Shown piece by piece: positions 1,355 to 21,770 of a DNA stretch of 60,101 nucleotides; position 1 is the stretch's first letter, and every line of letters starts with the position of its first letter. The notes under the pieces are model-generated. The model had not been told where the DNA came from. It worked only from the letters and a program-made list of their open reading frames with translations, and ran no database searches. The translations under genes and the position numbers were made by a program. The DNA is from Promethearchaeota archaeon (GTDB taxonomy: Archaea; Asgardarchaeota; Lokiarchaeia; Sigyniarchaeales; SOKP01): positions 1 through 60,101 of the forward strand of contig JBHLON010000021.1 in assembly GCA_048940445.1 (NCBI GenBank), given 5' to 3'.

Positions 1355-2002
1355 ATGGGATTATTTCTATTTGCTTCAGCAGTAAAAAATAAATCTTCAG
1401 TTGAAGTCTCAGCTTCAATTAAATCCTATTTAGCCCGAAGAAATATTAACACAGATGTTAAATCTTTTTCTGAATGGATAGATGCTAAACAAAAGAAAGA
1501 CTATGATATTCATGATGTTATCAGTGAGCCAATTTCAATGACAGCAGTTTACCCAAAGCTGAATAATTGGTCTATTGTAATTTATAATAATTGTCATTTT
1601 GAAGAAAAAGAAATCAGTAAGTTTGTATCGATTCAATTACAAACATTAGTTTCTTTAATTGAAGTATATGATTCTGATGTATGGTATCATTATGTATTTT
1701 TTAATGGTAACCAAGTGGATCAATTTTGTTCATCTCCTGAAGAATATGAGAACCGAGAAAATTGGAATTCACTAAAAGGAAATTTAAAAAAAGTTAGTTT
1801 TTATTTCGATGTGGAAGAACAGATTATCAAACCATATTTCTTCCAATTTAATTCAGAAAATCGATCAAATTACCAGTTTAATAAAGCTCATGAGGATGAT
1901 CGATATCCGTTAGGGAGTGAATGGGTTTTTATTGACTTTTGGAAAAGATTAGGTATTATTTATCCTTCTATGACTCCTGAAATACTGATTATTCATGAAT
2001 AA
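1355..2002 (+). CDS. Hypothetical protein (alpha/beta, YDSD.W motif)
   Basis: 215-aa ORF, ATG start; no confident family. Confidence 0.7.
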   Translation: MGLFLFASAVKNKSSVEVSASIKSYLARRNINTDVKSFSEWIDAKQKKDYDIHDVISEPISMTAVYPKLNNWSIVIYNNCHFEEKEISKFVSIQLQTLVSLIEVYDSDVWYHYVFFNGNQVDQFCSSPEEYENRENWNSLKGNLKKVSFYFDVEEQIIKPYFFQFNSENRSNYQFNKAHEDDRYPLGSEWVFIDFWKRLGIIYPSMTPEILIIHE

Positions 2003-2082
2003 CATTAAAAATAGCTTCTAATCTGTTCTGAAACTCGGGAACTATCAATAATTTTATTCTTGGTAATAAAATTAAGTTAAAT

Positions 2083-3267
2083 CTAATTATTAGGGATATT
2101 AATAGGATATTTACCATATTTTCTTCGAATATTTTGCATTGCTTCAAATCTATCTACAGTTATTGCCGGATTAATGGAATGTCCACTGCTAAATATATAT
2201 CCCCCACCTGGGGCTATCTCTTTAATTAACCTTAATGCATAATTTTCAATTTCAGAGATGGTTCCTGTTGCCAGCATCATAGGACTTAAATTGCCTGCGA
2301 ATGTAATTTGATTTCCAAATTTTTTATTTAATTCAAATATGTCATACTTCGGATTTGCTGTCGTTGGTTCGATGGGATTTATCGCATCTATCCCACATTT
2401 TATTAAGTTTTCAAATATTTCTAATAAGTCTCCATCAGAATGCAGTAAAATCTTAGTGTCTCGTTCATGAGCTGCAGAACAAATCCTTGTTAACCATGGA
2501 AAAATATACTTTTCATAATATTTAGGTCTCATAAATAAACCATTCTTATACCCATAATCATCTAAGAGTACTATTAACTGTGCATCAAGTTCAGCTAAGA
2601 TCTTGACTAATTCTAATGTAAATTTACCTCTGTCATCAAATATTCTCTTTGCTTGCTTAGGTCTGGTTAATATTCTGGAAAAGACTTCTAACCCAAAGCC
2701 TTCCCAGGTTAATTCCATCAAAGCACCCGTGGAAGGAACTGAAAAAATCTCATTTTTTAGTTCTTTTTGGATATCCCTTCCTCCTAGAAAACTATTAATT
2801 CTTGGTTCCCAATTTGGGTCTGGTTGCTCCCAGCTTTCATAATCTTCATAGCTTTTAAAAACACTACCTTGATAACCCAAAATCAAAGTTCCATCTTGAT
2901 AATACTCGAATTTCATTATCCTCCCATATTCATCAATGAATCCGTCTGATTCTTTTAATATTTCACGAGGATAAAGACTAGAAAGAGTCGTCACAATATC
3001 TATACCGGACCTACGGAAAAGTTCATGAGTTTGGATGTATCCCTTTTTGAATGTATCTTTTTTCTCTAAATTTTCTTTTAAAATTTTATTTCCATGTCTC
3101 CTATTCTTTAACTTCAGTATATCATAAACATCTTCTCCTGGAGTGAGACCATAATATCTCATAATTTTATTATTAGTAAAAGTACTTTCAAATGCGGGAA
3201 TTCTATCTGGTTCTTTATGATCAAGTGTCGTCAAAACTCTTTCAGGAGCTTTCATCTTTTCTCTCAC
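2083..3267 (-). CDS. Uroporphyrinogen decarboxylase / MtaA-CmuA methyltransferase family protein
   Basis: ERV...HKEPDRIP N-terminus, DEYG, DDYG, HSDG, GNL, GGGYIFSSGHSI. Confidence 0.85.
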   Translation of the reverse strand: MREKMKAPERVLTTLDHKEPDRIPAFESTFTNNKIMRYYGLTPGEDVYDILKLKNRRHGNKILKENLEKKDTFKKGYIQTHELFRRSGIDIVTTLSSLYPREILKESDGFIDEYGRIMKFEYYQDGTLILGYQGSVFKSYEDYESWEQPDPNWEPRINSFLGGRDIQKELKNEIFSVPSTGALMELTWEGFGLEVFSRILTRPKQAKRIFDDRGKFTLELVKILAELDAQLIVLLDDYGYKNGLFMRPKYYEKYIFPWLTRICSAAHERDTKILLHSDGDLLEIFENLIKCGIDAINPIEPTTANPKYDIFELNKKFGNQITFAGNLSPMMLATGTISEIENYALRLIKEIAPGGGYIFSSGHSINPAITVDRFEAMQNIRRKYGKYPINIPNN

Positions 3268-20059: not shown

Positions 20060-20221
20060 AATTTACATTCTTTTTTTTTATTTTTTGTTTTGCTTCAATT
20101 TATAATTGTTTTTTGAAGGTAATTAAAGAACCCTATTTGTTTCCTTCTGTTCGGAGGAAAACCAAAAATTATTAATTTTATGGCATATTTTATAGGTTAA
20201 TCATATTTCATCTGTTTATCT

Positions 20222-20226
20222 GGTGT
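20222..20226 (+). promoter_or_regulatory. Shine-Dalgarno GGTGT 6 nt upstream of the ATT start of rpoE1
   Basis: GGTGT-CCTGCA-ATT. Confidence 0.6.
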
Positions 20227-20232
20227 CCTGCA

Positions 20233-20829
20233 ATTTTTAAACTCTTTCAAATTCAAGGTAAAATTGAGATTCCTCCGTTCTTATTTGATCAACCTAAAGA
20301 AGTTTCGGCTCGCATAATTCTCTCTGAGGATTATGAGGGAATAATTACGAAAGATTATGGATTTATAATTGCTATAGTCGATGTCGTTGATGTTGGACCT
20401 GGAATTATCATTCCTGGAAATGCCAACACATTTCATGAAGTGGAGTTTACAATTCTAGCCTTTAAACCAGTTATCTCAGAGGTTGTGGAAGGAGAAGTTG
20501 TAGAAGTAGTAGATTTCGGAGCTTTCATAAGACTAGGACCTTTAGATGGGCTAGTTCATGTATCTCAGATCTGTGATGATTATATTTCCTACGAACAAGT
20601 AGGAAATCGATTCATCGGGAAGGAAACGGGAAAAATTCTGGAAGTTAATGATGTTGTAAGATCAAAGATTATTGCTGTTTCATTAGGTACCGGTAGAAGT
20701 GGGAAATTAGGATTAACAATGAGACAAAAATTCTTAGGTAAAGAAGAGTGGATTACACAAGATATTGAAGAAGAGTTTTCGGCGAAAGAAGAAAAAAAGA
20801 CAGATGAAAAAGCCGATATTGAAAAATAA
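20233..20829 (+). CDS. rpoE1: DNA-directed RNA polymerase subunit E' (Rpo7); probable ATT start at 20233 (track start 20440 is internal)
   Basis: Frame extends upstream as (I)FKLFQIQGKIEIPPFLF...YEG...G.IIAI; S1 domain DFGAFIRLGPLDGLVHVSQI; in-frame TAA at 20173 with no ATG/GTG/TTG before 20440. Confidence 0.92.
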   Translation: MFKLFQIQGKIEIPPFLFDQPKEVSARIILSEDYEGIITKDYGFIIAIVDVVDVGPGIIIPGNANTFHEVEFTILAFKPVISEVVEGEVVEVVDFGAFIRLGPLDGLVHVSQICDDYISYEQVGNRFIGKETGKILEVNDVVRSKIIAVSLGTGRSGKLGLTMRQKFLGKEEWITQDIEEEFSAKEEKKTDEKADIEK

Positions 20830-20839
20830 AGATAAAGAA

Positions 20840-20844
20840 GGTGT
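20840..20844 (+). promoter_or_regulatory. Shine-Dalgarno GGTGT 6 nt upstream of the ATT start of spt4
   Basis: AAGGTGT-ATTACT-ATT. Confidence 0.65.
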
Positions 20845-20850
20845 ATTACT

Positions 20851-21042
20851 ATTTCAAAAGAGCGCGCATGTAAGAATTGCCATTTAATAACAAAAAATGA
20901 GCAAATCTGTCCTAAATGTAAAACTCACAGTCTAAGTGATGATTTTACAGGGGAAGTTATAATTATACAACCTCAAGAATCAAAATTTGCTGAATACTTG
21001 AAAATTCATTTTCCTGGTAAGTATGCGTTAAGAGTTCGCTAA
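20851..21042 (+). CDS. spt4: Transcription elongation factor Spt4 (RpoE''), ATT start; missed by ORF track
   Basis: Manual translation (I)SKERACKNCHLITKNEQICPKCKTHSLSDDFTGEVIIIQPQESKFAEYLKIHFPGKYALRVR; conserved position after rpoE1. Confidence 0.93.
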   Translation: MSKERACKNCHLITKNEQICPKCKTHSLSDDFTGEVIIIQPQESKFAEYLKIHFPGKYALRVR

Positions 21043-21626: not shown

Positions 21627-21770
21627 CTCTTACTTTGATTTAGGTTCAAATTCATTACAATATTCAAAAAACCAAAATTTTATTTCTTATTGTTCTTTAA
21701 TGTTTTATAACTTTATATATTCTTTAAGTTATCTGATCTACATAGAATTACAATCGTTAAAAGGTTCACA

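Follow-up and report, generated by a model that had tools for sequence, protein, structure and literature searches.

In this Lokiarchaeia-type Asgard archaeon, an ATT codon (20233–20235, + strand) behind a strong ribosome-binding site almost certainly serves as the translation start of the gene for Rpo7, a stalk subunit of RNA polymerase, judging from the DNA sequence and its alignment with that of relatives. The explanation that we consider highly probable combines initiation at ATT 20233, a strong Shine-Dalgarno (SD) element that compensates for the weak codon, a lineage-wide tolerance of ATT, ATC or ATA starts (collectively termed ATH), and the same arrangement at the adjacent Spt4 gene. 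The stretch of DNA analyzed here (60,101 nucleotides; hereafter, the window) corresponds to contig C20 in an assembly of 3.64 Mb, which is 93% complete and has a GC content of about 30%.

The Rpo7 frame on the + strand is bounded upstream by the stop codon TAA 20173–20175 and closes at its own stop, TAA 20827–20829. Re-reading this frame confirmed the claim of the first-pass annotation that neither ATG, GTG nor TTG occurs between TAA 20173 and position 20440. The earliest such codon is GTG 20440–20442, and an ORF list limited to canonical starts contains only the 129-aa Rpo7 product that begins there. Read from the ATT, the coding sequence (20233–20829, +) comprises 198 aa plus TAA and is identified as Rpo7 (RpoE') by Pfam matches to SHS2_Rpb7-N and S1 and by its homologues, which carry the name DNA-directed RNA polymerase subunit E' in their sources. 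The SHS2_Rpb7-N domain (PF03876) spans residues 10–62 (E 1e-10, above the curated cut-off), and the S1 RNA-binding domain (PF00575) spans residues 82–153 (E 2.7e-11), both counted from the ATT. GTG 20440 is an internal Val codon at residue 70, so that a start at this position would delete the entire SHS2 domain. The placement of SHS2 at residues 10–62 also bears out the earlier statement that the conserved Rpo7 N-terminus precedes the first canonical start by about 69 codons. By itself, the codon-free run proves little, since stretches of 69 codons free of ATG, GTG and TTG account for 9% of in-gene windows of this genome and are therefore not rare in genes here; the weight of the argument comes from domain content and from relatives.

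Rpo7 was the single best match in 60 of 61 genomes of the class, which supports orthology, and its closest homologues belong to Promethearchaeota, Lokiarchaeota and other Asgard MAGs, with a protein from the Loki's Castle metagenome at 80% identity. The public protein of the same contig (P0001) has 198 aa and begins MFKLFQ; the source annotation thus already uses ATT 20233. Over the 68 codons that follow the ATT, the protein is identical to that of the two closest species at 68 of 68 positions, despite a dS of 0.8–0.9, and omega for these codons is 0–0.13 against all members of the genus, with synonymous sites saturated (dS 0.8 to above 3). Such strong purifying selection indicates that the stretch is translated. 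Expression from GTG 20440 alone, which would yield an S1-only protein of 129 aa and leave the upstream part untranslated or decaying, can draw on the standing of this codon as the first canonical start and as the origin of the sole ORF in the start-codon-limited list. We regard its probability as negligible: the SHS2 domain is encoded by precisely those 68 codons before the GTG, where the low omega is found at saturated dS, and GTG 20440 has no preceding SD.

The codon aligned to ATT 20233 was located in 78 genomes of the class, where it reads ATG in 37, ATT in 28, TTG in 8, ATC in 3, and ATA and GTG in one each, counts that ignore kinship and should not be read as independent samples. In the window's own genus (g1), ATT or ATC is found in 26 of 31 genomes (ATT 23, ATC 3, ATG 5). 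Genus g13 has ATT in all four of its genomes and genus g15 has one ATT and one TTG, while the sister genus g12 is canonical throughout (16/16) and other families carry ATG or TTG, with the exception of a single ATA. Absence of a canonical start before the conserved Rpo7 N-terminus was seen in 31 other assemblies. A gene tree from which the start codon was left out places ATH as the ancestral state of genus g1, and the ATG cases of the genus are separate reversions, four of the five having been placed on the tree, each in a different subclade. On the 76-row tree, the codon switches between ATH and canonical 10 times; counted by exact codon, there are 18 changes. Across the 31 genus genomes, the third base of the start codon is T, C or G, and never A.

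These comparisons also bear on what kind of codon this is. ATT 20233 aligns with the ATG or TTG of relatives, and ATT, ATC, ATG, TTG and ATA interchange at exactly this site, as expected if the ATT occupies the position of the initiator Met, a placement already made from the sequence of the window by itself; the interchange identifies a start codon rather than an Ile codon and excludes a sequencing error. An assembly or sequencing error with ATG as the true codon has a single point in its favor, namely that ATG is just one base away from ATT. With ATT, ATC or ATA present at the same Rpo7 site in 32 independent assemblies from four genera, we give this reading next to no credence. The first-pass annotation had held that ATG in close relatives would speak against the ATT; the distribution within the genus, with ATT and ATC far outnumbering ATG, instead favors it.

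Further upstream, several related species have in-frame stop codons at −3, −6 and −9 before the aligned Rpo7 codon, which leaves no room for an upstream start in those species. CTG 20212, previously listed as a weaker alternative, is indeed in frame and was rejected as a start: the codon is CTT in the closest relative, and other species have the stops at −3, −6 and −9. If translation in this species began 30 nt before the ATT, at ATA 20203, which is in frame, the protein would gain the 10-residue extension IFHLFIWCPA. The sequence AGGT lies 5 nt upstream of this ATA; the closest relatives have ATA or ATC at this position, and a database protein of 207 aa (P0002) has ATG. We nevertheless consider this start very improbable. 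In other species that carry the ATT it is blocked by in-frame stops at −6, −9, −15 and −24, and ATG-started homologues begin exactly at MFKL or MYKL, without an extension of the IFHLFIWCPA type. Comparison of the present genome with its closest relative showed that two of the four changes in the IFHLFIWCPA codons are non-synonymous, versus none in the next 68 codons, and nucleotide conservation within 20203–20232 is explained without coding by the SD that sits inside this stretch. The 10 extra residues of P0002 probably stem from an artefact of its annotation.

The SD core of Rpo7, GGTG at 20222–20225 (+), lies 7 nt before the ATT and in register with the G-rich peak of the genome; it is the same element that had been described earlier as GGTGT followed, after 6 nt, by ATT 20233. 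Among 1177 confident ATG starts of the genome, G is enriched from −14 to −8 with a G-G-T-G pattern at −11 to −8, and the GGTG before ATT 20233, like that before the Spt4 ATT, occupies the same −11 to −8 interval as in the SD-led ATG genes. Across the class, 30 ATH-start Rpo7 genes have an upstream sequence that can be read, and GGTG at −11 (±1) precedes every one of them, as compared to 2 of 46 canonical ones. Since kin are not independent, we also compared 7 independent pairs on the tree: the SD changes with the codon class in 5–6 of them and never against it, although the significance of this result is weak (sign test, p about 0.03). In the first four ATG revertants examined, the SD is degraded in three and displaced in one; in the fifth (G055), GGTG is still in register. 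A weak Rpo7 start codon goes with a strong SD.

The same combination recurs in the next gene. Spt4 (PF06093) lies directly downstream of Rpo7, as in the archaeal rpoE'-rpoE'' (Rpo7-Spt4) operon, with which it shares the gene pair, the order and the domains. After TAA 20833, the Spt4 frame reads RRCITISKERACKNC, with no ATG, GTG or TTG ahead of the CxxC zinc ribbon. From ATT 20851, the Spt4 (RpoE'') coding sequence (20851–21042, +) comprises 63 aa plus TAA and has no canonical start, and the Pfam match spans residues 4–63 counted from this codon. Its SD core, GGTG at 20840–20843 (+), stands 7 nt before the ATT, the same spacing as for Rpo7. The ORF list built from canonical starts misses the Spt4 gene completely. 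In relatives, the Spt4 start codon is mostly ATG or TTG; it is ATT in six close species and ATG in two equally close ones, pointing to a fast turnover from ATT to ATG in this gene. Spt4 genes without a canonical start are also present in family f6 (L133–L135) and in some genomes of genera g12 and g16 (L109, L121), which indicates that ATH starts are not confined to the window's genus; the head of one such gene outside the genus reads TGA GGA ATT TAT ATT CGC. Unlike most relatives outside the genus, in which both cistrons start at ATG or TTG, both start at ATT here. Within the window, Rpo7 and Spt4 are the only two genes of the ATH type.

The gene order continues from Rpo7 and Spt4 through a gene on the opposite strand to S24e, S27ae and Kae1. 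From its sequence, we take the opposite-strand gene to be a GTP-dependent dephospho-CoA kinase-like protein, and the names S24e, S27ae and Kae1 are likewise presumptive, being read from the sequence. Upstream of Rpo7, an A/T-rich block (20156–20183, +; AAAAyCAmAAATTATTAATTtTATg), which contains TAA 20173, is at least 80% conserved in the upstream alignment of the genus. A motif resembling this block, AAACCAAAAwTTwT, is found at 21669–21683 (+) upstream of the S24e gene, and the window holds 8 matches to the A/T-rich motif at no more than one mismatch, versus 2.6 expected. We regard the block as a putative BRE/TATA promoter that would serve the rpo7-spt4 operon and may represent a lineage consensus; with a promoter there, the transcript would start near 20195–20210.

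To place the two genes in the context of the genome, 2735 ORFs were considered that show coding-like codon usage and span 100 codons or more; 180 of them have at least 25 codons before the first canonical start. Tables of GGTG-to-codon spacing were uninformative because they are swamped by in-frame GGT codons, and SD 4-mers or 5-mers precede leader codons of every kind at a background of 2–7%. The signal became informative once only in-register SDs were counted, and only for codons within 10 of the upstream stop. With these limits, an SD precedes 48 of 787 ATT, ATA or ATC codons versus 78 of 4461 other codons, a 3.6-fold enrichment (Fisher p 1e-10). The 48 ORFs with an SD-led leader ATH, about 1.8% of ORFs, constitute a lower bound. 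Leader ACG codons, too, are enriched behind SDs (4/19).

We then turned to domain boundaries. Twenty candidate ATH genes were scanned with Pfam, of which 12 are supported by domain boundaries, 8 are uninformative and none is contradicted. In the 12 supported genes, the domain begins 2–16 residues after the ATH codon (one of the 12 has ACG), well before any ATG, GTG or TTG, and the Pfam match starts at model position 1–5, or at position 20 in the case of the luciferase-like protein. The supported set comprises a Ras-like GTPase, a RagA-like GTPase, CobA, Usp, GcvT, a peptidase M29, the MIT domain of Vps4, V-ATPase subunit D, AFOR, LarA, the luciferase-like protein and SMC. GcvT (contig C69 of this genome, G000, 1944–3038; L082) appears to start at ACG behind GGTGT, with its GCV_T domain from residue 13 and its first canonical start at residue 32. 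We conclude that ATT, ATC or ATA starts are tolerated in this lineage, at a rate of a few percent of genes, and that a device specific to Rpo7 is probably not involved.

The initiation machinery was examined in relatives. aIF1 (PF01253) was not found in this incomplete assembly, nor was the 3' end of 16S rRNA; ARAGORN detected 10–13 tRNAs in the assembly and found no Met tRNA in this MAG. GC-rich RNA genes are largely absent from the MAG, and one of the few detected tRNA genes is an intron-bearing tRNA-Ile(UAU). Of 20 aIF1 loci from relatives in the genus (L054–L074), 18 have a frame in which no canonical start precedes the zinc knuckle and SUI1 domain, with a conserved head reading TGA-AAA-AAG-AGT-ATT. 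A pattern search recovered the canonical initiator anticodon stem-loop GGGCTCATAACCC (anticodon CAT) in 8 of 26 genus genomes; ARAGORN called no tRNA in two loci taken from the anticodon-stem-loop pattern matches, one of which (L045) is a CAT match. Initiator-like stem-loops with anticodon GAT (GGGCTGATAACCC) were seen at G002:C40:4530-4542 and G022:C155:2660-2672. These are probably ordinary tRNA-Ile(GAU), and their occurrence in just two genus genomes is too few to explain the ATH habit.

In the mechanism that we propose, pairing of GGTG with the 3' end of 16S rRNA would bring AUU into the P site. There, the ordinary initiator Met-tRNA, with its anticodon CAU, would decode AUU as near-cognate despite a mismatch at the third position, and the Rpo7 protein would accordingly begin with Met. 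The efficiency of AUU is expected to be below that of AUG, with the strong SD offsetting the weak codon, and the identical mechanism would operate at Spt4 ATT 20851 in the same operon. Since the genome is AT-rich (30% GC), ATG-to-ATT mutations could become fixed wherever a strong SD is present. Start-codon stringency, which is presumably set by aIF1, would be permissive in this lineage. In Sulfolobus, according to a statement cited in PMC6237735, aIF1 discriminates against non-canonical starts. The lack of a canonical start in the aIF1 genes of relatives suggests a start-codon stringency that is both permissive and self-setting, to which the ATT start of aIF1 itself may contribute.

AUU starts are classic in bacteria, and ATT is a permitted start in translation table 11. 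In E. coli, infC, which encodes IF3, starts at AUU and is subject to autoregulation, and pcnB starts at AUU as well. As in infC and pcnB, an SD-led AUU that is near-cognate for the initiator tRNA serves as the sole start of an important gene, and the parallel with infC extends to the lineage's fidelity factor: aIF1, which corresponds in function to IF3/eIF1, has no canonical start in relatives. Unlike IF3, Rpo7 is not a fidelity factor; the archaeal system is that of aIF1, aIF1A and aIF2, and dozens of genes are involved.

These parallels raise the question of whether the ATT is a selected, gene-specific regulatory device of the infC kind, by which translation of Rpo7 (and Spt4) is kept low or made responsive to aIF1, as opposed to a by-product of AT-biased mutation. 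The persistence of ATT or ATC in the genus despite saturated synonymous sites (dS 0.8 to above 3) would fit selection, as would the exclusion of A from the third position in all 31 genus genomes, which implies that the start site is not neutral, and an aIF1 without a canonical start in relatives would supply a common regulator. Five separate ATG reversions within the genus and the canonical codons in all 16 genomes of sister genus g12, in contrast, show that the ATT is dispensable; Spt4 switches between ATT and ATG among the closest species, and ATH also serves as the start in dozens of unrelated genes (GTPases, Vps4, SMC, metabolic enzymes). Moreover, Rpo7 is an RNA polymerase subunit whose product does not discriminate between start codons, so that it could not close a direct feedback loop of the infC type. 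On balance, we consider a selected device rather unlikely, although it is the most credible of the rivals weighed here, and favor tolerance of the weak codon behind a strong SD. The first-pass annotation had drawn on infC to describe AUU initiation as rare and regulatory; the likeness to infC holds to the extent set out above, but the regulatory part is probably too gene-specific, given that dozens of genes including Spt4 use ATH. Feedback of the infC type may apply to the aIF1 of relatives, and not to Rpo7. A broader proposal, that ATH-started genes, including aIF1 (in relatives), Rpo7 and the elongation factor Spt4, form a translational regulon of this Lokiarchaeial family, strikes us as doubtful, and more so than a selected device at Rpo7.

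Near-cognate initiation has also been reported from archaea. Ribosome profiling of Haloferax volcanii showed near-cognate codons at about 30% of the putative alternative initiation sites (PMC7261190), and the ribosomes of this species, as proposed for Rpo7, thus initiate at near-cognate codons. The Haloferax sites are alternative or extra sites that were set aside by the authors (PMC7261190), whereas the ATT of Rpo7 is the only start that a conserved, essential gene has, and it persists stably across the genus. Closer in lineage, a 'rare ATT start codon' has been proposed for the tubulin gene AtubA in a Heimdallarchaeial (Kariarchaeaceae) Asgard MAG (PMC13394414). There too, an upstream ATT, at a plausible distance from a ribosome-binding site, restores the conserved N-terminus of an Asgard protein, which in that case was too short as deposited; unlike Rpo7, AtubA is a single anecdotal case from another class, without a census, a link to SD strength or a genome-wide count (PMC13394414). 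Beyond this remark on AtubA, our literature search brought up no systematic account of ATT starts from Asgard archaea. Together, these comparisons place the Rpo7 ATT as a well-supported case of SD-assisted near-cognate initiation, a kind already known. What is new here is the class-wide census of Rpo7 start codons, the tree-based link between ATH and a perfect SD, and the second ATT start at Spt4.

The consequences extend to how Asgard proteomes are read. Gene finders restricted to ATG, GTG and TTG shorten Rpo7 to 129 aa without SHS2 and lose Spt4, and dozens of other Lokiarchaeial proteins are likewise truncated, including eukaryote-signature small GTPases and Vps4; such truncations distort the inventories that underlie the discussion of eukaryogenesis. 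For the organism itself, core transcription genes have a stable ATT start that is tied on the tree to a perfect SD, and aIF1 has no canonical start in relatives; taken together, this suggests a less stringent choice of start codon in this Asgard lineage than in model archaea.
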